Source of the DNA: Paraspadella gotoi
Lineage: Eukaryota > Animalia > Chaetognatha
Assembly: GCA_051294375.1 (NCBI GenBank)
Contig: CM119270.1
Location: forward strand, 21,411,391 to 21,475,390
Length of the DNA: 64,000 bases
Direction of reading: 5' to 3'
Numbering within the stretch: position 1 is the first letter of the stretch; every line of letters begins with the position of its first letter. Below the pieces are notes generated by a model. The model was not told where the DNA came from and searched no databases. It worked only from the letters and a program-made list of their open reading frames with translations. The translations under genes and the position numbers were made by a program. Of this stretch, positions 27,901 to 64,000 are shown in pieces.

Positions 27901-30667
27901 AAAAAACTGGGCCTTATTTTCCCAGAATGCCCATTTTTGTCTCAAAATTAAAATTAAATTGCAGGAAAGAAATTAAAAAGTGGGGACTCTTGGAAAAGAG
28001 AGCCCAAAAAAGGGGTACACTTAGAAAAGTAAGCCTGAAAAAAAGGGCACTCTTGCAAAATTAAGCCCAAAAAAGGGCACTCTAGGAAAAGAGAGCCCAA
28101 AAAGGGATCACTCTTGGAAAAGAGAGCTCCCACCGAAACTGAAAAAAAACTTTTTCTTTCTTTCGGTGACAGATTTTACTCACGAAGCGGAAGTGGACAA
28201 GTTGACGGACCAATTGCTCAAAGGACTTAGGGCCACCAAAGACCCCAACTTTTTCGGTCGGTTAATGAAGATTAATTAATCAATTAATTTATTTATTTAT
28301 TGGTGGCTTGAAATTTCTGAATAAAAAAATGAATGAGAGAATGAATTAACTAATGAACGNNNNNNNNNNACTTTTTCGGTCGGTTAATGAAGATTAATTA
28401 AACAATTTATTTATTTATTGGTGGTTTGAATTTCTGAATAAAAAAATGAATTAAAGCCAATAACTTGGAAGAATGAATGAATGAGAGAATGAATTAACTA
28501 ATGAACGAAAGCCTAAAAGAATGATTGATCTGATGAATGAATTGATCCTTTCTCTCTCTTCCATCCAGGCATGTGCGCAAAGTGCGGCGGTGAAGTCTTA
28601 GGCGAATCCACCGGTTGCCAAGCGATGGACAACATTTATCACATCAAATGCTTCACCTGTAACGTTTGTTGTGAGTCACAGATTATTCATTTATTTATTA
28701 TTCTTTTTTTAATTTTTTTAAAAATCTATTTATTCATTATTGTAGATAATTAGGCGATTAATTATCGTAGCTAAATATTGTATTTGTTGTAATTTGGTCG
28801 CCAGCGTCGCAACTGAAAGGAAAACCTTTTTACGCGATGGAAGGAAAACCGTTTTGCGAAGATTGTTATCTCAACACATTGGAAAAGTGTTCAGTCTGCT
28901 CCAAGCCCATCACGGATAGGGTGAGAAATAAACATAAATAAATAAAAAAATAATAAATAGATTTCAATAAAAAAAATGACCTAAAGAAATAAGGGAAAAC
29001 TGAAGAAAGAAAAAAAATGAACTAAAAAAAAAACGAAGTAAAGAAATATTAAGAATGAATGAACTAACCTTAAACTTTCCTTTCCCCAAAATCCTTACCC
29101 AACAGATTCTTCGCGCGACAGGAAAACCTTACCATCCTTCTTGTTTCATCTGCGTCGTTTGTGGCAAAAGTTTAGACGGAATTCCTTTCACGGTCGACGC
29201 CACAAATCAAATTCACTGCATCGAAGATTTTCACAACAAATTCGCGCCCAAGTAAAATCTCTTCCGTTTAAACAATCGATCGGATAATTTTAAAAAGTTA
29301 ATTTATTATATGAGATTTGTACAATATACAAAATTATCGATTCATTTTAATATTCAAGTTACCAATACGAAATCATTCATTTATTTAATAAATAAACAAC
29401 CAATTCTTCTTACTGGACATTTATCATATGATTGAAAGCTTGCATGGACCTGCTATGACATTGTCTTGTAGGAGTGATTGTGGCTTTAAACCACCAAAGC
29501 CTGTCCAAAGTCAGAGGCAATATAGCTTATTTATTAAATGAATGGATAATTTGTATATTAGTTGTATCAATTTCATGTTGGAAAGGAGGACCGCTCCCTT
29601 AAGGTTGTAAAAACCCAGGTTCCTCTTAAGATGAATCCGTTTCGCTTTCCCTTACCCCTTACTCTTTACCCCTTACCCTTTCCCAGGTGTCACGTGTGCG
29701 GTGAAGGCATCGTACCCGAACCTGGAGAGACTGAAACTGTGAGAATCGTTGCACTCGATCGAAGTTTTCATGTCGCTTGCTACAAGTGTGAGGTGAGAAG
29801 CAAAGAAGCAAGCGTTGATGTAAGCATTGTGTAGAGGAGATGCAAGCATTGAGTAGAGATGCAAGCATTGAGTATCATTAGTGCCAAAAAAATGTTCTTG
29901 TCACGATAAAAATCTAAAACGAGCCTGAGAGAATTTTCAACCGAATGCAGCGTTTGTTAATGAATAAAATTAACATTTAAAATAAATTTAACTAAAGTAA
30001 ATAGTAAACGTCCCGCATGACCTCCTGCTTTTATCTTTCGACGCTTTTCCCTTTTTTTTTGCTTCCACCAAAACAAAAAACAAAAACAACAAAAAAACAA
30101 CAAAAAAACCAAAAAAATCCGCCCTTTTTTGTGAAATTTCAATTCAGTTTTAATTTCCCCCAGAGAGATTATGTGATAGAGTGAATCTTAAAAGTGACAT
30201 CACGTGCTGTGACATTTTTTGCCGTCGATCCACTCATGTTGAGATAAATCACCCCTTTTTATTTGATCACCCTGTACGATTGAAAGGATGTGAACTGAAA
30301 TTATAAACTGCTCCCATCAATTACAAACATCTTCTGAGTTGAATGTTTATTTTTATTTTTTTTTTTTTGTGGATATTTTTCGCCTCTTTGTTATAAATAC
30401 ATACATATATATTTTTTGACACTTGATTGAATCGGTCAAAACGAATTTACTGAAAAAACCCGTTATATCCTATTTGCTTCTTTTTTTTTTCATTTCGCTC
30501 ATTTTAATTCTTATTTTCTCCGCCAGGATTGTGGCATGCTTTTAGGAACGGTCAACGGCGAACAACGTCCCAACTACCCGCTAGATGGTCACATTCTGTG
30601 CCAACAGTGCAACGCCAACAGAATTCGCGCCATCACGGTCGCCGCCCCAAAAATTACCGATCTGTGA
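18134..30667 (+). CDS. LPP: Lipoma-preferred partner / zyxin-family LIM protein, 13 exons
   Basis: GT-AG exons in continuous phase: 18134-18244, 21134-21323, 21780-22043, 23213-23446, 24552-24940, 25074-25152, 26653-26868, 28173-28256, 28569-28670, 28805-28920, 29106-29251, 29687-29792, 30527-30667. Motifs: [11 protein letters not shown] (LPP KKFAPVVAPKP), ActA-type FPPPP EVH1 ligands, NES-like [13 protein letters not shown], three C-terminal LIM domains, C-terminal PDZ ligand KITDL* (human LPP ends STDL). First exon is less certain than the rest. Confidence 0.93.
20060..20270. repeat. Degenerate ~21-bp intronic minisatellite (gggaaatgtggtcaaaatttg)
   Basis: Repeated aaatgtggtcaaaatttggg-like units in LPP intron 1. 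Confidence 0.8.
21390..21775. repeat. Pyrimidine-rich ~40-bp intronic minisatellite
   Basis: Recurrent ccttttccacaacccattccacccttttcactactctt units filling LPP intron 2. Confidence 0.8.
26311..26419. repeat. Imperfect inverted repeat (~42-bp arms), probably centre of a palindromic MITE
   Basis: ttcggttaattttgctcaaccataattcaattgcatttcagt ... actgaaatgcaaatgaattgtggttaatcaaaattaaccgaa; weaker symmetry extends to ~26260-26490. Confidence 0.75.
27011..27183 (+). mobile_element. 5' half of the MITE family
   Basis: Near-identical to 17047-17219, then breaks into (ttttc)n. Confidence 0.85.
27980..28130. repeat. ~30-bp tandem repeat, ~5 copies
   Basis: ggg(c/t)actcttggaaaagagagcccaaaaa units. Confidence 0.8.
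29420..29577 (-). mobile_element. Reverse-oriented partial MITE family copy
   Basis: ttgaaagcttgca...ttaaaccaccaaagcctgtccaaagtcagaggcaa...aatgaatggataat...gttgtatcaatttca is the reverse complement of the 17047 copy. Confidence 0.8.
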
Positions 30668-31524: not shown

Positions 31525-34500
31525 CTACGCCGATCCAGGCGCCCCGAGCGTAAACATGGCGGTAGAGGGCGCGGCTCCGCTCTGCGCCATTAATTTCTGG
31601 CATTCCTGCAGATGTCCTTTGTCACCGAGGCGCTCGAACGTCGACGCTGCTGACGAGAGTAAGATGGCGCGTCGTTCGTCGCTTGCGTTTAACACGAGCG
31701 CCGGTAGATGTTTGCAAGCCTGAGGGAGAGAAAAGAAAAGAACATCGAAATTAGGGATAAAATATTAATTAAAAAAAAAAAATAAATAATTGTCAAAAAA
31801 GTAATGTGTGGCTTATTACGGATAAATTAGTCGAGTTTTAATAACTTAAAGATGTTGATAATTGAAGGAGATTATGCAGATAAAATCATTGTTTATATTT
31901 AATATTAATTTTTTACTTTTATTAAAAAGAAAAGGTTGTTTACAAAAAACGCAACGAAAAGAAAGTCTTAACAAAATGTCTCTAAATTATTATTTGATAT
32001 CATCGAGTAATTTATAATATTAATTCTACCATGAGATAGCAAAGCGCCGACGTGGATTCGTTGATAATCGAGACGCCATCTTCCTCCGCTTCCTGGTCGC
32101 CACGCCCCCTTCGCGTCGTCATCGGTCCGAAGAACGTCGCCGTAACGCCGGCGTCATCGGCGCCGCCGCCTCTGCAGCGACCCCGAAGCAGCAGGGCCTC
32201 CGTGCGGAGCGGCGAGGCGCCGCACATGAGGCGGTAGGCGGCTTCGTGGAGGAGGAGTTTGGGGAGGGCGGCGGAGCGGACGAGGGGGAAGGTGGAGATT
32301 TGGCGGAGGAAGCTGGGAGGGGGGGGAGATGGAAGAGAAGTAAAAATACTGTTAAATAAATACTAATTTCTGTTTAATCAATACTAAGTCAAAATTTTTA
32401 TAACGTAAATCCAGTTTATTGAATCCTAAATTTAGTTGAAAATAACCTAAATCGTGTTAAATAAATCCTAATTCAAGTTTTATTAAATACCAAATCAAAA
32501 ATAATACACACTAAATACAATTTGTTGAATCCTAAATTCAATTAATATAAATTAAATTTAGTCAAATAAATCTTAAATCAAGTTAAACAAATCCCAAGTT
32601 CAGTTTAACAAATCCCGGATCCAGTTTAAAAATTCCTGAATCTAGTTTAACAAATCCTGAAACCAGTTAATACTGACCCCAATTCCTGTTGATAAACTCC
32701 AATGTCGTCGACTTCGAAATCTGAACCAGATTCCATTCCGTCTTCCCACAAGTTGGTCCTTTAATCAAATTAATTTAATAAATATTAAATATGTAACATA
32801 TTTTGTTTGTTGGTCGTTGATTAATTCGCTTCTCGGCTTTGTGTTCACCTCGCTTCACACTTCCTTTACTCACCTTGCAGTCAGAAGCCAATCAGCGGCC
32901 ATCAACTTTACTCACCTTGCAGTCAGAACCCAATCAGCGGCCATCAACTGCAGAATCTCCACCATGTTTCTTTCCTCTTCCTCATCATCTTTGGACCCGG
33001 ATGCAAATTTGTCGTGGGACCGGATGTTCAGCGAAGAGCGGAGTCGAGATCCGGCGTCGTTGCAGGCGGCGATGACGGCGTCGGTTCGTCTGAGAATATT
33101 GTCATTTGAAAATAATAAAGAAAGAGAAAATGATAAAAAAAAGAAAAAATGAATAGAAAGAAAAAAAATAGATGAAGAGATAAAGAAAGAGAAATAGTGA
33201 GAGATAGAGAAAGAGAAATGGAGCGAAAGAAAAAGAAAGAAAAAAAGAAAGAATAAAAGAAATAAAGAAAGAAAGAAAGTAAGAAAAAAACAAAACAAAA
33301 CAAAGGAAGGAAGGAAAGAAAAAAAGAGAGATAATGAGAGGGCAAATCCGGATTCCGGCGGATTCTACCAGAATCACGGATCCGATTCTATTTTCGGATC
33401 TGATTCCATCTGCGATGAGATGAAGAAATTTCTCTTTCAAAAGAGAAACGGAGCGGAAAAAATAGAGAAAGAAAGAGAGAAATAAAAGAAAAAGAAATAA
33501 AAAGAAAGAAAGAAAAATAGAGAAAGAGAAAGGGGGAGAAAAAAAAATTAAAGAATAAAAATTAAAGGAATAAAAAAAATAAATAAAAAAAAAAGAAAAG
33601 ACGACTCCTCACCCATTCCTTCCTTCGGCCTTCAACTTCAAGGACAGGAAGTGTGCCCTGAAGGCGTGGAAAAGGGCGTGAGGGAGCGGATCGTCCGAAT
33701 CCGCGAGATACTTTGGAAAGTTAAGAATCGCGGGGACGAAGGGTGAAGCATCTTCTTCGTTGCCGACGGACAAATTGACGGAGGCCGCGATCAGAGAAGA
33801 CCACCATCTGGGGGAGAAGGAAAATGTAATGTCAGTAATGAAACAATTTACAGTTTACAATGCGTCATATAACAATTTTGTTTTGAAAAAGAAACGGAGA
33901 TTGTTTTTTTTGTTTGATACAACATTAAGCGATTAGTGAAAACGTATTGTAAGATATAGTAAGAGAGAGAGAGAGATAGAGACAGAGAATTAGAAAGAGA
34001 GAGACAAATGATGACCTGGCCAACTCGTCTCCTTGATCGCTCGACGTCAACTGCAGATCGTTGAATGGCAAACGCGACATCTGAATCTTCGACATCTCCA
34101 GCACCAACTGCACCTTGGAGACGACTTCCGCCAGCACCCCCAACGCCTCGTCGCCGGCCGCGCCCATCGCGCGTCGTCCGGCGCCACGAGAGGGCGTCAC
34201 CAGTGCCCGAAGGCAGGATCGCAGCAGCGCCCGTTTGTAGTCGCGGGCGACGAAGCTGAGAGGATTGGCGGCACTGGAAGCCGCGGAAAAAAGGGGCGCC
34301 GTTCGGTGACCGGCGCCGGCGACGCCGTCTGAGGTGGAACAATGGGTTGCGCTCCAGGCGCCGCCGAGGAGGAATCTGGTAGTGGGGGGGAGGAAATATT
34401 TGATATACACTCATGTGCAAAAAAAAAACGCCACTTAATAACTTTTAATTCCAGATGCTCCATAACAATTTTTATAAAAATTATGTAAATAATTTTTTTT

Positions 34501-37500: not shown

Positions 37501-40081
37501 TGAGAGTCGTCAGAGGAAATGACATGGCAGCTGAAGAGTCAAATATATTAAATAAAAATAGATAAACTTAATATTTCAAAATATTATTACTTACTTCACA
37601 CTCGTTTCGGCTTAAGTTAGTAAATATATCCTTAACAGAGACAAACATTTTACTCACAAATTCGACTTATTAAAAATAGACTCTTACTTCCCATCAACTA
37701 GTGCCACCAATCCCCGCTCTCCACTAGCCACACCTATCTCTCCACTACCCCCCTCTCTCCTCTACCCCCCTCTTTCCTCTACCCCTCTCTCTCCACTACC
37801 CCCCTCTCTCCTCTACCCCCTCTCTCTCCACCCACCCACCCACTCACCTACGACGACTCTCCATGAGGTCCAACACTCCGTCATCCTCCACTACGGTGTG
37901 AATCTTTCCGAAAAGATGCGCGATGCCGTTCTCGTTGACGACCTGTTTGTAGGCGTGGTTCTCGGCTCGAAGTTTTCCGTTCTCTCGTTGCAGATGACGA
38001 ATGTAGTCGACGGCCTTGCGGAGGACGGCCGACTTGTTGGTCTTGGCTTCGTCGACGGCGACGAGGTTCTTCAGTTCCACGATTTTGTCGTTGATGGAGC
38101 ATCTGATGGATAGAGAGATGAGTTTTGATGGAGAAATTGATGAGGAAAGATGAACGATTAATTGGACCAATCAATTTTCATCGAAAGTCAATGTCAATAA
38201 AAAATTAGAATCTGACAAAAAAAAATTACATAATAACTGACATAAATTGACGCAACATGACTTAATTGACATAAAACAATTTTCGAGAGCGAGGTACATG
38301 ACATTGAGGTATCCACCTCAAGTCGGGAGAAATTTCGTCAGTTTATTGAATCAATGAATAATTAGTTGCGCAGGGATTACTCGAGGAGCAAATCAATAAG
38401 TCGGTCGGTACATCTCACGTTAAAAATACTCATAACTTGGGTAATACTTAATTTAGTTTATACTTTTTGTTCGTCCACAGTACCATATAAAACCTTTAAT
38501 GTGCATATCCGTGAATGATTCTTGTGCATATCACGTGACCACACAGAACTACGATCAGGTGATTACAAAATAAATGAGGCATATTTCATATAATATTTGG
38601 TTATAGTTAAAACATATATTGGTTGTACCAATTTCATAATAATGTATTCATGTAATTATGTAATTATGATCTCTCAAAAATACACATGAAAATAAAGTCA
38701 TTGCGGCGAAACACACTGAAAGAACCAAACATGAGCAGTAATCTTTCCATTTCAATATCAATTGAGGTAGGAGTAACGAATACGTACAAATTCCAAAAAA
38801 GACAACAACGACAAGGACAACTACCTGTATCTCTTTTCGATGGCGTTGTGAGAATATCTCTTCCCTCCTTTTCCTTTCGACTGAAGTCTCTCGATCGCCA
38901 CTTTTTCTCCGCCGTCGACGACAACGCCGCAGGGCGCCGCCGCGGAGCTGGGCGAGGCGGCCTGCAGCTGCGCGGCCAACGTGGGGGCGCTGGCCACGAT
39001 GGGGGAGAGGGGCAGGCAGGAGGGCGGCGACGACGACGACGAAGACGACGACGAAGACGGCGAGGCTGCGGCGGCGACCGCTGCGACGGCGGACGGAGAC
39101 GGCGTCACCAGGATCGGATGCATCGTCGCGACTCGCTGCGGAGACGAGTGAGCGGCGCGAACGACTTGCTCTTGAGTCAGAATGCGTTGCGGCAGAGTCT
39201 GCAGCGCGGGTTGCGGCAGGAATTGTTGCTGCAGGGGAGCGACGTTTTGCTGCGGAGTTGAGGAAAATTGCGACGACGACGACGACACTGTCAGTAATTG
39301 TTGGATCCGGCGATTCGAAGCGACGGGGGATTGGGTCGGTAAAGGTGCCGACGCGACGCCTGATTGGGTCTGCAAAGGATTGGACATCGGCGCCTCTTGA
39401 TTCAGCTGTGCCTGTGAATTCAGCTGTGCCTGTGGATTCAGCAGTGCCTGTGGATTCAGCTGTGCCTGTGGATTCAGCTGTGCCTGTGGATTCAGCTGCG
39501 CCTGATTATTCAGCTGGGTCTGTGGATTCAGCTGTGGCACTGCGGTCAGCAAGTGCTTGAGAAGGTTCTGGCTCTGCTGATATTCGCGCTGCTGCCGGTC
39601 CTGCTGATCCTGGATTTGCTTTAAAAGATTTTGCAGATTTTCCATTTGGTTGGAGGGAATTGGAGGTTGAGACGGAGGAGGAGCGGCTGAGGGGGAGATT
39701 AAGTTTATTAAGTTAATGAAGAGAAAGTAATTATTGTTATGTGTTAGTGACAGAACCGTTCAATATAAGCAGTCCCTGAGCTTCGGATCAGGCTGTAACA
39801 CCATGTTACAGGCGGTTTAAGCGCCCCGTCCCTCTTAACTGCTAGGCGACCACCGGGCTAGAACCCCGGACCATTGGGTTGGGAGGAAAATGACTTGCCT
39901 CCGGCACCAATGGCCGCTGATGAACGGTTAGTGGATTTTAGTCCAACATATTAATTAATTTTATTAAGAATTAATCTAAATTAGACTTTATTATGATTTA
40001 ATTAACCATGAAGGCTTTATGAGGCTGGACCAACAATCCAATTGTACACCAAGTTCATAAGTTGATGGTCCCATTCTCCCT

Positions 40082-40126
<45 letters not shown>

Positions 40127-40895
40127 AAAAAAAACCCGGATTTCTTTCACATAAATCAACCATAGACTGACCGACAATTCCTTCCTCTCCGACTCACCCG
40201 GCGCCTTTTTCTCACTCACCCGCTCCTTCGACTTCTTCCTTCTTCACCACGAACGGCGACACGGACGCCATCGCCGGCGCCTTTCCCGTCCGCTGCTGCG
40301 GATGTTGCTGCAGAAGCTGCTGCTGAGACGTCGCTCCAGCGACGGCCTGCAGCTGCAGATGATGCTGCGACTGAGACCGGTGACGTCTATTGACCGGCGC
40401 AGGCACGGCGCCTGCCGGAACGGGAACGCCCAAACCCGGCGACATCTTGCCGACGACCAGAGCGGCGCTAACGGGTGGCCAAATTACATTCGGGGAGGAA
40501 TCGTGATTCCAAACAACATCCGGGTGGGCGTGGCCAGATGTTGTAGGGGAGATCGGAATGGAACCTTGAAAAGGTTTGAATCTCGTCGCTGTTACCATGG
40601 TGATGTTATTGTTATTATTATTACTATTATTTTTGTTGTTTACCTTCGGCTTCCGTGATGATAATTGATCGATCTTCATCCTGAGTCATTTGATGATCGA
40701 AAAGGCGATCGTCGAACAAATCTGTCGGGTTATAAATAATTTAATATCAACAATAAATTCTTAATTAAATAATTAAATGTCATTTCTGTTTTACAAAGGC
40801 CGTCCGCCTTTACCGTGCATGAACTGGTCTCCTTCGCCGGTCCCGTGAGCGATGAAGCTAAGTAGTTCCTCGTCAAGATTCAGTTGTGGCTCCAT
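31525..40895 (-). CDS. SREBF: Sterol regulatory element-binding protein, 16 exons
   Basis: In-phase GT-AG exons: 40895-40814, 40721-40644, 40564-40220, 39686-38825, 38102-37848, 37530-37254, 37035-36776, 36533-36309, 35993-35810, 35547-35417, 34375-34016, 33807-33613, 33089-32916, 32758-32678, 32312-32030, 31719-31525. Acidic N-terminus; bHLH-Zip [20 protein letters not shown] with the SREBP-diagnostic Tyr; DRSR + TM1 with NP (S2P motif); luminal RMML (S1P RxxL); TM2 ..[17 protein letters not shown]; C-terminal [17 protein letters not shown] and ACKHLP...[14 protein letters not shown]. Confidence 0.97.
35090..35230 (-). ncRNA. Minimal type I hammerhead ribozyme with 53-bp stem I, in SREBP intron 10 (sense)
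   Basis: Minus strand 35177-35143: CUGAUGA-A-GGCUCA-aacug-UGAGCC-GAAAC-AU-GUU, flanked by 53-nt inverted arms (35178-35230 / 35090-35142) with one G-U wobble and one mismatch on this strand. Confidence 0.8.
36031..36297. repeat. ~42-bp tandem repeat, ~6 copies, SREBP intron 8
   Basis: atcatttatattccagtattatcacttccaacccaatcacttct units. Confidence 0.9.
39846..39918 (-). mobile_element. tRNA-derived SINE head (degenerate tRNA-like) in SREBP intron 3
   Basis: Minus strand GCGGCCATTGGTGCCGGAGG...TCCCAACCCAATGGTCCGGGGTTCTAGCCCGGTGGTCGC has A-box- and B-box-like motifs and an acceptor-like stem; related copy at ~62345-62420. Confidence 0.55.
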
Positions 40896-40990
40896 GGCGG
40901 ATTTAAGGGCGGATTTAAGGCCAGATTAAAGTCCAACGCCAGGCCGATTTAAGGCCAGATTAAAGTCCAACGCCAGGCCGATTCTAGGCC
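40896..40990. repeat. Short tandem duplications directly upstream of the SREBP ATG
   Basis: ggcggatttaag x2 and ggccagattaaagtccaacgccaggccgatt x2. Confidence 0.8.
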
Positions 40991-41239
40991 GCCTTTGGCC
41001 GATGATCAACAGTAATTTTTTACACGTTTGAAAAACCGGGACGAAATTACGGTGTGAAAACAAGAACAAATATTTATTTTTCGTTACGTTGTTTTCTGTA
41101 AATTAACAGGACGATACGTTAAAAGAATGAGTAAATGATGTCATTATGCGTCAAAATTCTCCACGTAACCAAAACACATTTCATTTTTCTTGCATCTTTT
41201 TTTTTTTGTTCTGCCTAAAAGTCAGATTTGTTCTCGTCT

Positions 41240-41305
41240 CTGATTGGTCGATTCGTGTTGTGGTTCGATATGACGTCATCTGGTTCGAGAATTTGGACCA
41301 ATCAG
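41240..41305. promoter_or_regulatory. Symmetric CCAAT-CRE-CCAAT promoter core between SREBP (-) and miR-33 (+)
   Basis: ATTGG 41243-41247, palindromic TGACGTCA 41271-41278, CCAAT 41298-41302; the CCAAT boxes are oppositely oriented on either side of the CRE. Confidence 0.65.
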
Positions 41306-41711
41306 CGATCAGAGTTTCTCGGTGGCCTGATTATCTCCTCTTGGGCCGTCGAACTTGACTCAGGAAAAAAAAACCAGCGTTCCTACTATTTTCTGTTCCA
41401 ACTTCAGACAAAAGGGTACAGTGCATTTTATATTGCTATAAAACTTAACCAACTATTTAACACAAAAATTTCCGTTATTGTATTTTAAAGCGAATAATGA
41501 AAGTATAAGTTTATTTATTCTATAAGCTTTTCATTATCAAACAAAACTCAGACCATAGTGTACGGAACGTCGGGTTTTTTCGATAGAAATAGGATAAGAA
41601 CCCCAGTTCCTTCGCACTCAACTTCTGAATTGCAAAACAAATCTTCGCATCAAAAGTTTTTTTGCCTAATTCGATGAAAACTACAACTACAACTAGTATC
41701 AGCTTCGATTG

Positions 41712-41796
41712 CCTCACAGATGGTGCATTGTAGTTGCATTGCAAGTCACTAATGATACTCCTTGCAATGTTTCCGCAATGCAAGCATTGTAAGAGG
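41712..41796 (+). ncRNA. mir-33: pre/pri-miR-33 hairpin
   Basis: 41723-41743 GTGCATTGTAGTTGCATTGCA is identical to mature miR-33(a)-5p; 3p arm CAATGTTTCCGCAATGCA (from 41765) resembles miR-33a-3p; basal stem cctcacagatg/cattgtaagagg; CNNC (CAAC) at 41803, ~17 nt past the 3' cut. Confidence 0.95.
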
Positions 41797-43406
41797 ATTT
41801 TGCAACAATCAAAAATGACTCGTCGTTTATAAAGACCAGTGTTTGTTGATAATAAAAGGAGAGACTAAAGTAACGATATTTTGTTAGGAAAACAAAACAA
41901 TTTTGAAGCCGACATTTATATTTAAACAGATTCCAGCGCATAAATAATAAGTAAACATCACGGAAAATTACGATAACTTACAACAATCACCTGAATGTCT
42001 ATTGTGAAAATACTAACAAATGCACCCAAAGATAACGAAAACAGCAGGGTCGAAGATAGCATAGACGACTAATTGATTAAAGTATGCAAGTCATTGTAAG
42101 ACAATGTAATGAACTTTATACACGAGTTGTTAACATTTAGAAAATGTGATGTGAAAACGTGAGGGAGCCAAATGAATGAGAATTTGCATTTCGCGATCGT
42201 ACCATTGATTTATTTCGTTTTAAATAAAATAACGTTTTAAGAGTTATAAACAATACAGAGAAAAAGAAAATTATTTTAAAGCTAATCTCGAGAATAGGCG
42301 AGATAAAAATTTAGAAATATTATGATTATAGAAACGGATTTTTAGCCGAAAATATTTGAGTTTTTAACAACGAATTTAATTAAGCCGAAACATGTCCGTT
42401 AATGAAATAAATTTAATTCGTTGTTTAAAACTCAAATCTTTTCCGCTAAACATTATTACAACGAAAACGAATGGATTACACAAAGAAAAGGATTTTAAAA
42501 AAATCTTTAGACTGCCGACATTATAACTCATGCGGTAAAGCTTAATAAACGACACTTTTATTTCTGATTTATGCCTTTCAACAGTCAATATATAAGTGAG
42601 GGAAAAAGGATTTTTGGTGTCGAGAAAGATAGAGAGAGAAAGAGAGGGATCAAGGGAGAAGAGAGAAAAAAAAAGAAAAAAAGAAAAAAAGAAAAAAAGG
42701 AAAGAAAGAAAAAAAGAAAAAAAGAAAAAAAGAAAAAAAGAAAAAAAGAAAGAAAAAAAGAAAGAAAAAAAGAAAGAAAGAAAGAAAGAAAGAGAGAAAG
42801 AAAGAAAGAAAGAAATAACAAAAAGTTAAAAAAGCAAGCGTTGCTTGCCAAACATGCTTGAGTGGACGCAACAAGTTTCACAGTAAGAATGATTTATTCT
42901 TCAACAAGGTTATAAACGATAACAATAACAGGCTCAGATGCTAAGTCTACAACAATGGATATTTACACTGTCAAAGTTGACCATAAAGAGAAATGAGGAA
43001 AAACAATTGAGGGTAAGATTGGTAAGTTCAGTTTTTGACCGAGGTTGCGTGTTGTTGTTGTTGTTGTTGCTCCACACTTGGTTCTTTCCTGGTTCTTGCT
43101 TGGTTCTCGGTGCTTCAGAACCGAGATTCCCCCTTCGTTTTAATTTTTTCAAAATTTCAAAAAAAAAAGTGGGTGAAATCTTTAAACCGATGATATTTAT
43201 AATTAAATTTAACAAAGGATAAAAACTAATACAAGTTTCGAAATCTTTAAACCGATGATATTTATAATCCAATTTAACTTTGGACAAGAGATTGAATTCA
43301 ACCTTTGGAGTTGAACGTGAAAGTTTTGTTTCTCCAATCAATCAAACGAGTTTTGTCGTTCACCTCATTTCACAAGATGTTCACGTTTCTCACAACCCTT
43401 TTCATT

Positions 43407-43468
<62 letters not shown>

Positions 43469-46289
43469 CAATATTGATTCTTATCAAAACGTTTTTAGAA
43501 TTTTCCTTTTCATTTAACGGTTAATGACCCAAAGACACGTGGAAGCAAGTGTAAGAGTTTCAGAGATATAAAAATAGTTTTATTGAGGTATATAAGGAGA
43601 AGCATTGAAAAGTATACCGCCGACACAGATGAATATAAAGATGTATCGAATTTACTTAAAGATTTATGTAATTTAGAAATATTTATATTGATTGCATTAT
43701 TTTAGACGAAACGGAATACATTTATTACTATTTTTTATCTCTCGGCTTTAAATATTTTTCTTTCTATACCGAAATGTTCCAATTTTAAAAAAAAATATTA
43801 ATCTTTTGTTGAACTCTCTATTGAACTATTGAACTAATAAGTTAGAATGACTAATTACGATTTTTTTTTGAGTCGTCGCCACATAATTCCAAATTCCATT
43901 GACAGTTATTTAAATTTATAATTAAAATATTTCATTTAAACTTCACTAGTTCAATTAACATGAAGATCGACGCAATTATTCTCTGCGTCGTCTTCGTGCG
44001 CCGCATTCAGTCAATCAGTTAATAAGTCTGTTAATCTATTAGTTAACAAATCTGTTCAACAATCGATGGATCAGTCAGTCAGTCAATCAGTAAATCATTT
44101 TATCAATTAATGAGGCAGCCTTTCCTGCTATGTTTCGTTTTACACAAACAATCTCATCACTTAGTCACTTTATTAATTCCACGAAATATCGCGGTTCTGC
44201 GAGTAGAGGTTGAAAGTTTTGAGTCCAGACAACAAATTTGTTCTCCTCAAATAAAATTTAAAAAATGATGAATTTGTTCTTTGGTGTCGCATCCGACAAA
44301 ATGACATCTTTCCCTGGACCACTGGACCGAAAACCACTAACCGAGGAGACCACCCAACCACCATCCCACTCCACCTCCCAACAAAAAAGATTAATGCGAC
44401 GGAAAAAAAAGGAATGACGTTGACAACGAAAACTGTGCAAACTGTGCAAACTGTGATAACCTGTGCAAACTAAAAAAAAAAACTGTTGAAAGCCGCGAAA
44501 AATTGTGAATTATTCAAATCTGAGGTCAAATTTGCTTTTGGATCCAAAAATGGCGAAGGTTGTGATATCTAGTGATGAGGGGAAAAAACGAGTTCAGTTT
44601 GGAAAAAAAGTTGCAGTGGTATATGATAATAAAGACACTTTTCATGTACATTTTTATTGAACTTTTTCTGACGATAAGTGATCACAAGTTAAGTTACAAA
44701 CCGGTTTATAAAAAAATAATATGCAAATGAGGACGGAAGTGAGGCTTATAGAAAACAAATGATCGGAAGTTATTACTTCTAACAACGGGAAAAACACTTG
44801 TTAATATTTGCTACAACACTTGAATAATATTTAAACGAGCCTTATAAAAGCGCTTTTTCGAATGCAACATGGTTGATTCGGTACAATCATCAATAACATA
44901 CAAAACACAAAACACAAAACACTTTTCTTTCACTTAAAATTTTTTTTCGTCAGAACGTTAGGAGTCAACTCTCTCTTTCTCCTCTCTTCCTCATTCATTA
45001 TTAATTTTTCTTTCCTTTCCTTTCATTTATTTAATTTTTTCAAAATGTATCTATATTTTTTTTCAGCATTTTTCTCCTTATCTTCTGCAGAAATTAAGGA
45101 ATCGCTCCCCAAGCGAAGAACCGATTGTCCTTTATGCATTTGTCGTCGTCGTCGTCGTTGTTTTGAGTTCCGGTTATGCGTTCAAACTCTGGAATCATCA
45201 AATCGAATTTTATTGAAAAATCCGTTTTGCTCCAGAATGCTGACGGCAAAATGCAGAGACTGGGAGAGAGAGATAGAGAGCAAGTGGGTTAAGTCATCCA
45301 TCAGAGTTACGGCATCCGAACAATATCTAAAGAACCTCATCTGATCGACAGCATTTAGTATATACGGCATTCGCTTTTATGCCGAATGTAGAGCAAAATG
45401 AAAAATTCCGAGGGAAAAAAAAGATTAATTAATATTAGTTGTTAATTAATCCTAACTTTCTCAGCATACCTTACTTTACCTTACCTTACTTTACTTACTC
45501 AGCATACCTTACTTTACCTTACCTTAATATACCATACCTTACTTTACTTACTCAGCATACTTGACTTTTTCTCATCCCTTTTCTCTTTCTCTCTTTNNNN
45601 NNNNNNNNNNNNNNNNNNNNNCGAGCACACGGCAAGTGTTCGTACAGTAAAAGGCAGAATTTAGTCTCCTCTGGCCTAAGCATCTATTCATTGTGAAAAG
45701 AGAGATGTAGAGTCATTGACCATATTTAGAATACAGAAGTTGAGATAGAAATTTGTATTTGAGTATAATTTTCATACGTATAATATTAAACCTATTTTCT
45801 CCCTTTTTTGCATGGTCTTGCCACGATGGCAATCGCCCGACTACGGGCCGCTCAGAATGAAGCAGATGGAATCGGTCCAGACAGTGCCGAACAGCTCGAA
45901 TGTCTCCGGCACACATTTCAGGCCTTTTCAACAGGGCCGTTGAGACGGAACGTCAGCGGATCGTACGTCTGCAACAGTATTGAGAGAGGCGCTGCGAAAT
46001 TAAGAGGCAAGAGGCGATGCTTCTCGCGGCGAGAACATAGGCTTGAGAAATACGCATGTGTTATCCACGAGGAATTGATCGGGTAAGAGACGCTTTGCGC
46101 GAAAATCCAAAAATTTCCGCCGCATTTGGCGGTTTCGAACGATGATACTATTATTGCTGGATCCTGCCTCCGGCCCTAGCTCTCGGGCTGGATCCCCGTA
46201 TCTCCTCCCCCCCGACCCTACAATGCCGGTCGTAGGGAGAGGAAGGAAGCAGGTGGACGCTCGACGATGACCGTGGGAGGGCGGCGAAC

Positions 46290-49200
46290 GACGTCGACGG
46301 ATGATCAGGTTCCGATTGCCGTCGCTTGAGGCCCGGTACGGCACCTCCCCTATCCAGACTGCCTTCATGACTCCTCCCACGTCCGATCTAATTGAAGCGG
46401 TCGCCGCGACGCGGGACCATATACGAGCGCTTTTGCGCCGGTCCCTGCCCATGAACCCAACTTCCGGGGCGAACGACCGCACCGATGGTGAGAACGATGG
46501 CTACTAGTGCGACGGCGACCGATTCTGGTCACTCCAACATAACACCTCGCACAAACCGACCACTTCTACCTCCGTCCAGCTTTGCTGACGAGCAGCAACG
46601 CGTTGCTTGAAGAGGCAGTGCAGAGGGCAGTTAACGATAAAACTAGAGCCGGCACGCACCGAAGAAGAATTCTAGAGAGAGAAAATGATGATGTTGCAGG
46701 AGGAAAAATGATCGATTGCGACCAAGCTGCCGAGAGGCAGTCAGCTCGAACGACGTGCTTCGCAGCCTGCCAGGAAACTGTCAGCTGATCGATTAGCGGA
46801 GAGACACGTTTACGACGAGTTCCGAACGTTCACATGCGCCGGCGGTCATCTCTGCGGACGGCGCCGAACCTTTCCCTGTGTGCCGGCGCCCTATCTCGAT
46901 TTCCGCTGAGGTTGCTGCATGCGAACGCCGCGTTCTCGGCCGAGAGGTACTGCGTCGAAACTAGCAACGGGTTTGAGCGCTTTGCCTGCGGAGGGAGCCG
47001 GACCTTCAGCTGATAACAGCCCATCGGCGGCGAATCTGACGACTTTGACGAGAGATTATCTGCGATAGAGAAATCGTCGCTCAACAACAAGTCGCAGTCA
47101 TGAGATTCGAACGAGAGCAGTTGGAGACGTCGAAAGGGAGAATCTTCAGAGGAACTTCGAGGCCACGGTGATTGAGAATGGTTACGATGATTTCTGGGTT
47201 CGCCCAGGCGTGAGAACGCACCCCCACGGATACAAACGCCGCCTTCGCCACCCCGGGCACCGCTCCCTCGGACTCCTTCTCATCAGCCCCGCGCTTCGCC
47301 TCTCCACGATCCTTACCTCAAAGAAACAATTCTCAGAGAGATCCAGCGATCGACGCACAACAAGCGCCAAATAGCTCAACTTTCAGAACAATGCGACAGT
47401 TACAGGAGAGTGTGAGCGCCTTTCAGCACACGAGAAACGGTGGGGGCGGCTTCCGGGAGGCGGCCCCGCCTCCTGAGGCTCCCCCACGCCGGAGAAACGA
47501 TCGATTACAACAGTATTTACACTCCCAATCGATAGAGTCGACGATCCGCATGCTCAAAGACTTACGCCCTGAAGAAATGTTTAGAAACGAAGGTGCGAAA
47601 AAACAAAGTAGTCTTCGAAATTCACATTGAGACAATGGGAGGCGGCGATGACTCAACCTGTGTTCACCGCCCAAATGCGTCATCAGGAACTACGCCACTG
47701 GTTCGGTGGTCTTGCGCGGGTTGAAACTCCAAAAGTATTTTCATCGGACTGATTATTCGGCGGCGTAGATGAAGCCGTCGCAATGCTTCATCAGGAATTT
47801 GGACGACCCGACGCCTCGCCTCACGAAATGCTAAAAGATTGTTTAGCCGGTGGTAAGGCAACGGAAGCGACGAGATCGATGAGACGATTACGCATCTAGA
47901 GAATATCGCCGCATCGCGGAGGCAAAGGGCCGAATCGCGCGATTTGAACCGGACACGGTTATCTCAGAGATTCTCGACGCAAAGTTTCCTCAATGGAAAG
48001 ACAAATTGCAGAGGAAAATTCGCAATCGGGTCTTTAGAAATGGACGAAAACTTACGCTTTACGAATTTATTGAATTTTTGAAAATTCACCTTGTTGCGGT
48101 GAAATCGGTCTATGGCAAAAGGAAAAAAGATAGCGACGACGGGCTGCGGTGGCGGCGGTTGCGGCAAACGGCTGGCACGCTGCCCCGTCGACAAACGTGG
48201 GGGCATCGAGGATCAGCAAAGGGAAACGAGTGCCACAGACTCGTTCGATTCGTCTGACGCAGCCGATTCCCGCCCAACCGGAGTTGCAAAAGAAAAAGAA
48301 AAAGAAGCGAAGAAAGACGAGCATAACTGAAGCGAAGCCCACGCTCCTCTCCCAGAAGCCGATTGTGCTTACATAAAAGCCCAATGGCCGACTTATCCGG
48401 CCATTCCAGCCGGTGCAGCCGCCGATTCAACAGGCGGCGGCTACACCTGCTCCCCAGATCCAGATGGTGACGAATACGCAGGAGTCCGATGTATACCTCG
48501 ACGCCGACTCGCCCATCAACTCCGCATTGCTACTTTTGTGGACAAGACCATATGATCTGGGAGTGTACAGGCTATCAGGCCACTCGGCGTCCAGGCGAGA
48601 GCCGACTTAGCGGCAGGCCGACGATTATGTTTTAAATGTTTAACTCCTAACCATTTAGCAATTAGATGTAGATCTAGTGTACCATGTAATCAGTGCAGGG
48701 GAAATCATCATCCCATGCTTGCACGGCGCGGCGCCGGTGCCCCGACAGATGCCGGTTAATCAGGTGGCACAATATCAGCCACAACTGGTCTATGTTCAAA
48801 CTCCTGCTCCCGCCCATGCCTACACCCACCTTTTTTCAATCCACTCCCTCCTCCTATGCTGTTTTTTCTCCTTCCCAGCCCCTTCAGGACCCTGGGACGG
48901 CGAACGCTGCGGCGACGCGCAGGGAGGACTGGCTGATTCAGATCAAACGAGACCAACGACGACGGTTCCCGTGGCTCCGGCAGCAGCAGCGACCACCAGC
49001 AGCGATGCCCACTCCGCAAGCCGGGAACAATCAAACAGTTGACTAGCAGTTGCGTCCGCTCCTGGCCGAGGCGACCTTTCGTCCTTCGTGCCAGTCGTCG
49101 TCGAGATGAACGGACGCAAACGCACGACTTATGCAATGATGATAGCGGCTGTAATCGCGCTGCGTATGAAAGAAAACATTGCCAACGATCTAAGTATAAC

Positions 49201-49600
49201 TTGCAATGATGTAAAAATGAGAATCGAACTTTAGATAGTGATGTTATTGTAGACAAGAAAGTTGCTGATTTTAATATTGAACCACTTAATGGAACTTTTT
49301 CTCTTTCTATTAGGAAAGCGATTGTGGGACATTTGCTTACATCGAGGACGATCTCCCCCGTGCGATGCAGATGTGGGTCGACAAGCCTCATCTCAAGGGG
49401 GTAACGTTCCCCAACCTCCCTGACAAGGAGGTTGGCGTGCTCCTCCCGGCAAACTACGCCTACACTTGGATTGATGGAGAGGTTCGACGAGGTTCGCGAG
49501 ACCAGCCGTAGCCATCAATACAATGTTCGGCTGGACTTTGATCGGACCCAGAGATGGGAAATGCGGCGATGAGTGGATTGCGCACGCATGACCGCCGAGT
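46290..49600 (+). pseudogene. Decayed BEL/Pao gag-protease
   Basis: Three Zn knuckles CYFCGQDHMIWEC / CFKCLTPNHLAIRC / CNQCRGNHHPML (~48525-48720); TYAM.DSGC protease site (~49125-49150); HLKGVTFPNLPDKEVGVLLG and AINTMFGWTLIGP (~49390-49550), typical of Pao peptidase; many frameshifts. Start boundary approximate. Confidence 0.85.
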
Positions 49601-50632
49601 TTGTTGAGATTTACCAATTGTATATAAATATATCGTTGACTTACTCGACTTTCGTTTAGTACAGTCGATGCAAAAGATAGTGAAAGATTATCGGTTTGCG
49701 ACTTCCGTTAAAACGAAAAATAGTGAAATGTTGCAAGTCTCAAACAACATGCGCAACAGCTTTGTCGACAACTCTGGCGCCAACCGACGACAAATCCTTT
49801 CTTTGGTCACCGAAACCCTTGCCTCAGCTCCTTCCTTCCCCTCGATGCCGGAGATCATTCCGGCGGGGGATAACCATTTTCAGCAAAGATGAGAACCAAC
49901 CCACGATCTCGAGGGAGACGAGGCGCCGAAGTCGCGCCCCCGCCGACTTACGGCGGGCCAGACGCGGCTTGGCGCTCGTCAGAAAGAACATTGAAGCGAT
50001 TCTGTCGCGACATCGCAGCCAAAAACCGGAAATTATCCATGGACGCTATCACATTATAGACTCGTTTTTAAAGTTTTATCCTTTCTCGCTTTTATCTATT
50101 AGCTTGTCGTTACCATCACTTTTGGTCTTTGTCAGATCACACAAACGTTCGATTTTACCATTTTTTTTTATTTGCTCAACTGATCGTTCTGTTAAGAAAT
50201 TCGACGCGCACGCTCAAAAGAAAATTTTATTTCGACGATCTCGTGACATGGTTAAATTTCATTGTGTAATTCATGCGAAAAAAAGAATAATTTATTTACT
50301 TTGATATTGTGACATTCAAACGTTAGAGAATTCAATCACATAAAATTAAAAGAAAAGCGGTTTTCTGACAGGCCATAAATTGACAATAATGAAAAATATT
50401 TTCTTCCTTTTCCCTTTCTTATTTTGTTTTCATTTATTTCGACACTTTATTTATTTTTCTTCTTCCCTTGATCTTATTCCTCTTCTTTCCATCTATCTTG
50501 ATCCTTTCTCTTCTTCTTTCCTGATCTTTTCTCTTCCTCTTAGGCCATGGACTTTGCACTGCCCTTCCAGAATCAGAGTGGTTTTCGTTGGAGTTTTTCC
50601 ACGCTCTGATGGAGAAGCGCTGGAGGTGGGGG

Positions 50633-51196
50633 TGTAAGATATGTACCCCCTTTTCCCCCATTTATTTTGTTTACCTTTGTTATTCACCGTTTCTGCCGAT
50701 AGATGTCTTTTTCCTCTTTCTTTAAGGAGATTACACTCCTCTTTCCTTTCTTACCAGATATTCTAGCCTTAGACACTTAGGACTTTTCCGCCCGTCACCA
50801 AACTGCCTTTTACGAGGGCTTTAGACCTTCACGTCACGTCAAGTCACCCTTTTGTACCGCTTCACAGACAGAGTCATTGTGCCATAGAGCCACTGCCTGA
50901 GGACCCACATTCGAGGACTTGTGGACGCGTTCGGTTGGTTCAGACTTTCACCCGTCATAGACTCGTGACGACTTGTAGGTCCCCACCCTCGACCACGCTT
51001 GGTGACGACAAACCTCGCCGATTTAACCCATCCCGGCGAGCCGACGTTTCTGGCGCAGCGCAACGGCGCCAGACGCGACCACGCCCTCTTTCGGAGCGTC
51101 AGCGGGGGACGTGGAGGACGACGGATCCTCCGTAGCGGCCGCGACGGCGGAAGAAAGCAGAGGCGGCTACACGAGCACACGGCAAGTGTTCGTACA
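50633..51196 (+). repeat. 3' LTR (564 bp), TGTA...TACA
   Basis: Begins tgtaag immediately after the PPT; ends cgtaca; terminal 25 nt identical to the 5' LTR remnant. Confidence 0.85.
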
Positions 51197-51402
51197 GTTA
51201 TAGTGTAGTATAGTTAAATAAAAAGTATTAAACAAAGTTTCCAGATGACCAGTAATAAACTTTAAAACAGAGTTGAGAGAACGAGAAAACTAAGGTGAAC
51301 ATCACAGCCTGTGAGACACAAGTGGATGGAGACTCGAATTGTGAAAGGTGAAACTTTCGGAACGAAATTTTATGTCCTCATCAAACTAGACACGTTTAAT
51401 TT

Positions 51403-63108: not shown

Positions 63109-63644
63109 ATTTATTTGAAAATTTGTTGTAATGATTGATGTCATCATTATTATAATTATCACTATTACATCAACATTATCATTAATATTATATAATTTGT
63201 AAAAAAATGAATGAATATGTTATAAAACATCTACACGAAGGAATAATATTTTGTAAACATTATACGTACTACCATGATAGAAAAAAACTTGTCATGGTTT
63301 GTAAAAATTATTACATTTCATTCTCAAATACTTTTTTTGGAAGATATCGTGATCTCCAAAAAATAGTTTGGATGTTGTCTTCACGACATTAAATACCATT
63401 CGATATTCATTTGACAATAAATTGTAAGGCTGCATATTTTCCTATACACAACTATCTAGGATATTATTGTTTTCAGATTATTATGGATTCTTGTGGTGAT
63501 CGGTTGTTTCATGGCCGCAACGAGCCAAATCATTATGCAAGTGATGTATCTCCTGTCGGACCCTGAGGCGGCGAACATCAAGGTGGTCTACAAAGACATG
63601 CTCCCTTTCCCGGCCATCACCATCTGCAATCAAAATCAGTTCAG
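62134..63644 (+). CDS. DEG/ENaC (ASIC-like) sodium channel subunit, first two coding exons; continues beyond the window
   Basis: 62134-62270 MGGEDD...WEDFTQNTTMHGFRYIF..KIRR (pre-TM1 HG motif); 63477-63644 LLWILVVIGCFMAA (TM1)...LPFPAITICNQNQFR (FPAxTxCN signature); window ends on a likely acceptor (ttccatag). Confidence 0.93.
62345..62420 (+). mobile_element. Degenerate second copy of the tRNA-derived SINE-like family
   Basis: ttttcttctaaacccaagggtcccgggttctagtcc aligns with ttttcctcccaacccaatggtccggggttctagccc of the 39846-39918 copy. Confidence 0.5.
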
Positions 63645-64000
63645 GTACATCGGACCTTTGAGGATTAACGGCTCGAGTACGCGCTGGTGGTTACGATGTT
63701 TCCCTCTACAAAAATTACAATACTTCGAAACGGTACTTTAAGAAAACGGCCCATCTCAGCTTTTTTTTTTTTCGCCATGCCGTGCCATGCTGTTCAGGAT
63801 TGTGTTGGAAAAATTCAAAGCTCCTATTTCATACTGACTTCATAGTATAGTCATAGTCATAGTAGTAAATAAACATAGAATTGGGGGTTGGAGTGGGAGA
63901 GACGCGAAAGAAAAACGAAAAGATTTGAAGAGAAAAAAAGACTAGGAATTTTTTAAATTTTAGATTTCTGGCATTGCATCGGGACTTGCCTGTTCCATAG

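Follow-up and report, generated by a model that had tools for sequence, protein, structure and literature searches.

The case of miR-33 in SREBP is the textbook one of a host gene and an intronic microRNA (miRNA) that act in one pathway. In a stretch of 64,000 nucleotides from the arrow worm Paraspadella gotoi (contig CM119270.1, positions 21,411,391 to 21,475,390; hereafter the window), the mir-33 hairpin lies 0.8 kb upstream of the SREBP start codon and on the opposite strand, and its usual host intron is gone. We suggest from the sequence that the two are probably transcribed divergently from a shared promoter with NF-Y boxes and a cyclic AMP response element (CRE), and would thus be co-regulated.

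The mir-33 hairpin and SREBP

The sequence-only reading made two claims about this layout, namely an exact miR-33-5p within a full plus-strand hairpin with a downstream CNNC motif, and a SREBP gene that starts head-to-head with it on the minus strand. Both were confirmed (Table 1), and 828 bp lie between the start codon and the miRNA. The hairpin scored 59.1 bits against the Rfam family RF00667 (cut-off 50) and was the sole gathering-level match in the window, within which the mir-33 and SREBP copies of this animal were counted. The first 19 nt of miR-33-5p had one match in the window at three or fewer mismatches and none in 100 shuffles, and the whole 21-nt arm is the same in 38 other loci. 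A TG at -13/-12 of the hairpin lies one base off the usual place of the basal UG in miRNA hairpins. The covariance score, the stem, the CNNC motif and the arm with the seed UGCAUUG, as this seed is printed in a passage of PMC5027541, make the hairpin a member of the mir-33 family. No second miRNA was found between 40800 and 46000.

The SREBP gene was read as an open frame in which all 15 introns have GT-AG borders and nine are in phase 2. Its product has an HLH domain (PF00010) with AIEKRYR at amino acid (aa) 450, and we take the tyrosine of this basic region as the mark of an SREBP bHLH-Zip domain. It also has DRSR at 601, NP at 618 and RMML at 651, which we take to be the SREBP protease motifs, and membrane spans that were read by eye. 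The bHLH-Zip domain with its tyrosine, the membrane hairpin, the protease motifs and the C-terminal regulatory domain identify the protein as an SREBP. The closest named proteins are SREBPs; over about 1000 columns most of them are 29-33% identical to the window protein, and one mite protein 25%. In a tree of 28 rows, made by a quick method and without tunicate, flatworm, rotifer, acoel or named annelid rows, the window protein and three others (54-59% identity) stand on a long branch without a named neighbour, and the lineage is unplaced there. A tandem repeat at 39380-39560 in exon 4 encodes AQLNPQ units.

Contigs from eight of the nine listed runs were compared with the window. X1, X3 and X4 come from one sample (S1), and the window itself may derive from X1; X5-X8 belong to study P2; X9 is guessed to be an RNA run, and gaps in its cover were not counted as evidence. 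A spliced X9 contig joins SREBP exons 1, 2 and 3 and continues into the start of exon 4.

Table 1. Features of mir-33, SREBP and the interval between them (positions in the window)
Feature	Position	Strand	Basis or remark
SREBP coding region, 16 exons, 1328 aa	31525-40895	-	open frame, GT-AG introns, HLH, relatives
SREBP exons 1-8	40895-40814, 40721-40644, 40564-40220, 39686-38825, 38102-37848, 37530-37254, 37035-36776, 36533-36309	-	
SREBP exons 9-16	35993-35810, 35547-35417, 34375-34016, 33807-33613, 33089-32916, 32758-32678, 32312-32030, 31719-31525	-	
Site of lost miR-33 host intron, codons E1129/I1130, in exon 13	32956-32957	-	position counted from exon list
34-bp direct tandem repeat, likely SREBP 5' untranslated region	40908-40975	-	upstream of ATG; X9 contigs reach 40975
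NF-Y-type CCAAT box facing SREBP	41240-41249	-	perfect 10-bp inverted copy of right box; ATTGG at 41243
CRE palindrome ATGACGTCAT	41270-41279	.	380 bp to ATG, 449 bp to mature miR-33
NF-Y-type CCAAT box facing miR-33	41296-41305	+	CCAAT at 41298; altered at 41299 in X8
TATA-like TATAAAA, candidate core element of the primary miRNA	41437-41443	+	weak: 29 such plus matches in window
mir-33 hairpin	41717-41789	+	Rfam RF00667 score, fold, mature-arm match
miR-33-5p mature arm	41723-41743	+	exact 21-nt match
Predicted 3p arm	41765-41785	+	hairpin fold
CNNC Microprocessor motif	41803-41806	+	+18 from predicted 3p end
AATAAA, candidate polyadenylation signal of the primary miRNA	41851-41856	+	X9 hairpin contig stops at 41858

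Loss of the host intron

An exact 21-mer scan of metagenome contigs returned the 38 other mir-33 loci, in which SREBP exons were sought by profile search. They were found in 22 loci, always sense to the miRNA, and in none of the 38 were SREBP exons on the strand opposite to miR-33. The known arrangement named in the sequence-only reading, a sense miRNA in a SREBP intron, holds for these 22 loci (19 non-redundant hairpins). The 16 loci without SREBP exons represent nine non-redundant hairpins, and several of them are too short or may lie inside long introns.

The hairpin occupies one shared intron position in 20 of the 22 linked loci, and a phase-0 acceptor was present at this position in 17 of the 18 loci examined. 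The other two carry miR-33 in the bHLH intron, also of phase 0 (L013:3643 and L025:2221); L029, which has the accession prefix of L025, has the usual 3' intron. By way of five loci (L003, L015, L026, L031 and L035) the shared position was mapped to aa 1130 of the window protein. The window SREBP is continuous at both host sites. It was also claimed from the letters that no SREBP intron holds miR-33, and we agree: no remnant was found in the 15 introns on either strand, where the best match had seven mismatches in 21. Thus the window does not have a sense hairpin in a SREBP intron, and the host intron itself is missing.

This loss is part of a larger change. Five introns are shared among other loci, each being present in at least two of 12 (477/0, 730/0, 811/1, 1130/0 and 1189/0, as aa position and phase), and the window gene has none of them. 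Conversely, for 11 of the 12 window introns between aa 456 and 1265, the part in which novelty was scored and which leaves three 5' introns outside, at least one of five loci has a continuous exon across the site, and for nine of the 12 at least two have one. Because several automatic junction calls were unreliable, intron positions were used only if repeated in at least two loci. The window SREBP has undergone near-complete replacement of its intron set. This would explain why miR-33 did not stay in its old place and suggests that the layout is derived, with relocation during wholesale intron turnover as its most likely origin.

An origin by inverted duplication of SREBP, which we also considered, gained no support. 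Neither tblastn nor profile hidden Markov models found a SREBP remnant outside the gene, the only blastn match was 39 nt long and lay at microsatellite edges, and the interval contains no long inverted repeat.

The interval between the genes

Midway between the genes lies the ATTGG-TGACGTCA-CCAAT core that had been noticed from the letters, with ATTGG at 41243, TGACGTCA at 41271 and CCAAT at 41298. TGACGTCA occurs twice in the window, while the composite core occurs once and appeared in none of 5000 shuffles of the interval. The 18-nt arms around the NF-Y boxes are 83% complementary. Shared elements of the kind that mark bidirectional promoters are present here in the two NF-Y boxes; by a passage of the review PMC4730256, CCAAT boxes occur in 12.9% of bidirectional and 6.9% of other promoters.

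The contigs add some hints. Those of X9 on the SREBP side stop at 40975 and the one on the hairpin starts at 41703, and they show neither start nor strand. The hairpin contig (41703-41858, depth 4) is the sole non-exonic, non-repeat X9 contig shown, with a chance of about 7% that a stray contig would fall there. In all four P2 runs the depth of contigs in the interval exceeds that of the SREBP-side flank 2.4- to 32-fold, compared to 0.95- to 1.33-fold in the three S1 runs, although contig depth is a poor measure and the library types are not on record. The deepest contig of the interval (X7, 41197-41372) is centred on the NF-Y/CRE core. The interval depth in the P2 runs hints, if weakly, at a single region of open chromatin. 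The symmetry of the motifs and these weak hints make a shared bidirectional promoter likely.

If so, transcription driven by NF-Y and a CREB/ATF-type factor at 41240-41305 would start near 41000 on the minus strand and at about 41350-41500 on the plus strand. The plus-strand product would be a short primary miRNA ending near the AATAAA at 41851, from which Drosha and Dicer would release miR-33-5p. Vertebrate miR-33 targets lipid-export and fatty-acid-oxidation mRNAs, and by analogy the same classes are predicted as targets here. As to history, a copy of the hairpin may have been retained at the promoter as the old introns disappeared, whether these were lost in place or a processed copy took over.

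The most serious alternative, which we consider unlikely, is that miR-33 has its own nearby promoter and that its closeness to SREBP is left over from a local rearrangement, without co-regulation. Several observations count in its favour or, more generally, against a shared promoter. The TATA-like element at 41437 could act for miR-33 only, and a contig of X8, from another sample, has a C>T change at 41299 that breaks the CCAAT box facing miR-33. By simple consensus forms, the sterol regulatory element (SRE) TCACNCCAC and the E-box CACGTG are absent from 40896-41716. An SRE adjoining NF-Y, the sign of a sterol-autoregulated promoter, was thus not found, and sterol feedback through the promoter is therefore not evident. 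The shuffle test of the composite core was post hoc, the pattern having been picked after it was seen. The X9 contig on the hairpin is shallow and unstranded and could be DNA. Even where miR-33 is intronic, a passage of PMC4138081 gives a weak correlation with the host in oyster (r = 0.58), and one of PMC12866572 reports that in both fly and human cells E2f1 binds sites some 2 kb upstream of the intronic miR-33.

Furthermore, at least four locus groups of other animals have miR-33 next to unrelated genes, and no SREBP exon was found there in up to 6 kb upstream or 10 kb downstream, so that linkage to SREBP is not obligatory. The neighbours, named from a scan of 99 of 146 candidate frames, are a mitochondrial carrier (L038), Kelch and inscuteable genes (L011), a DUF885 gene (L009) and a ubiquitin hydrolase (L001, L002, L021, L023 and L024). 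The hairpins of L038, L011, L009 and the L001/L021 group fold, and they score under the Rfam cut-off, as do the intronic ones of L020, L032 and L035. Long miR-33 loops of about 42-66 nt occur in nine loci (L001, L009, L016, L020, L021, L023, L024, L032 and L035), and those scanned are below the cut-off. Against a separate promoter stand the NF-Y boxes, which mirror each other across the CRE palindrome halfway between the genes, and the deepest P2 contig, which is a single stretch over this core. We therefore keep the shared promoter as the preferred explanation.

It is improbable that this copy of the hairpin is spare or silent and that the working miR-33 has another location, such as an intron of a second SREBP. 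Intronic and non-SREBP copies do occur under one accession prefix (L032 with L038, and L035 with L009). However, the identity of the 21-nt arm with that of the 38 loci and the intact stem and CNNC motif are unlikely to have been kept by a silent copy when the lineage has a long branch, and the X9 contig on the hairpin also speaks against it.

Still less probable is a start of SREBP further upstream, such that the hairpin is read on the minus strand within a 5' intron or a trans-spliced outron and gives a miRNA of the same seed. According to a passage of PMC12460157, about half of arrow worm genes are trans-spliced, which would bear on where SREBP starts. The antisense 5' arm (41762-41783, minus) has the miR-33 seed TGCATTG, found in one of 35 other foldable loci, so that a minus-strand product keeps a small probability. 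The two strands also fold about equally: the energies were -28.6 (plus) and -28.7 (minus) or -34.8 and -34.9 kcal/mol, and -33.6 and -29.7 with other ends. The sequence-only reading had held that G-U pairs favour the plus fold, which was not supported, each strand having three. Nevertheless, the minus strand scored only 32.3 bits against RF00667, it has no basal UG and no CNNC at +14 to +20, and the plus arm, including its unpaired bases, is the conserved one. No X9 contig joins exon 1 to sequence past 40975. We assign the miRNA to the plus strand because of the conserved arm and the CNNC motif, fold energy and G-U pairs being uninformative.

The sequence-only reading had offered two origins, relocation after loss of the host intron and an ancestral head-to-head state from which the intronic position came later. 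The first gains support from the absence of the aa 1130 intron together with the four other shared introns. The second we hold to be highly improbable, as one intron position is common to 20 of the 22 linked loci of distant animals, and the window gene has a replaced intron set and a long branch; it is kept because the lineage is unplaced in the SREBP tree. For a close relative's genomic locus, the miR-33 pattern had no matches in genome and viral contigs, and P0002, from a related species, gave none.

Contigs of two studies tile the interval in the order of the window. In X1, X3 and X4 the depth is flat to about 42370, except for a two-fold rise at the 34-bp direct repeat, and there are no joints; the X3 and X4 contigs 40160-40941, 40920-40975 and 40954-42454 follow one another, and in the second study X6 tiles 40160-41884 and X8 tiles 40920-41839. 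The 34-bp repeat is the only contig break from the ATG to the hairpin in X1, X3 and X4, and no contig crosses it. An inversion or a chimeric join could be proposed in that no single contig holds both the SREBP coding region and the hairpin. However, a repeat in direct orientation cannot turn the sequence around, and mis-assembly of the head-to-head layout is very unlikely, the least probable of all these explanations.

Some other features were seen around these genes. A short multi-copy genomic repeat with high depth and many loose ends lies at 42380-42500, 600 bp 3' of the hairpin. The GC-rich 5.6 kb at 45622-51203, between 32-nt direct repeats and next to an N gap, have short broken frames and look like a decayed element of the long terminal repeat type; three of the frames had no match in Pfam. 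Convergent with the 3' end of SREBP, LIM-domain exons lie at about 28000-30660 (plus) and resemble those of zyxin/LPP. A DEG/ENaC channel gene (PF00858) starts at 63460-63738 (plus).

Meaning and comparison with known systems

Whether host-miRNA pairs persist for the sake of co-expression or because introns are rarely lost is discussed in a passage of PMC2817437. If the core drives both genes, the arrow worm is a natural experiment that favours selected co-regulation, with outputs separable by small promoter edits. We see it as evenly balanced whether a bilaterian miRNA-host pairing has here outlived its ancestral introns by moving to the back of the host promoter, selection keeping the co-transcription and not the intron. 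If true, it can be predicted that intronic RNAs in general may escape in this way where a lineage has a heavy turnover of introns.

In the full-text literature, outside which lie most subscription papers and MirGeneDB, we found no description of miR-33 head-to-head with SREBP, and the main text of PMC12460157 has no mention of miRNA or SREBP. Both genes and NF-Y bidirectional promoters were already known; it is the rewiring of miR-33 relative to SREBP that appears new.

Intronic miR-33 is the nearest system for comparison. Passages of PMC5027541 place human miR-33a and miR-33b in SREBF2 intron 16 and SREBF1 intron 17, and rabbitfish miR-33 in intron 16; the miRNA is likewise intronic in oyster SREBP (a passage of PMC4138081) and in Drosophila SREBP (one of PMC12866572). 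The arrow worm shares with these the miRNA family, the seed, the partner gene and the tight linkage. However, the arrow worm hairpin lies not in the gene but upstream of its ATG, on the opposite strand, and the host intron no longer exists. The loci L013, L025, L038, L011, L009 and the L021 group likewise indicate that the hairpin is able to move or duplicate, but in them it is either sense-intronic or unlinked to SREBP within the contig. Head-to-head pairs driven by NF-Y, such as PRR11-SKA2, are similarly divergent, less than 1 kb apart and with CCAAT boxes between them (see also a passage of PMC4730256). In contrast to such pairs, one partner here is a miRNA that in other animals lies in an intron of the other gene, and the bidirectionality is predicted from the motifs.
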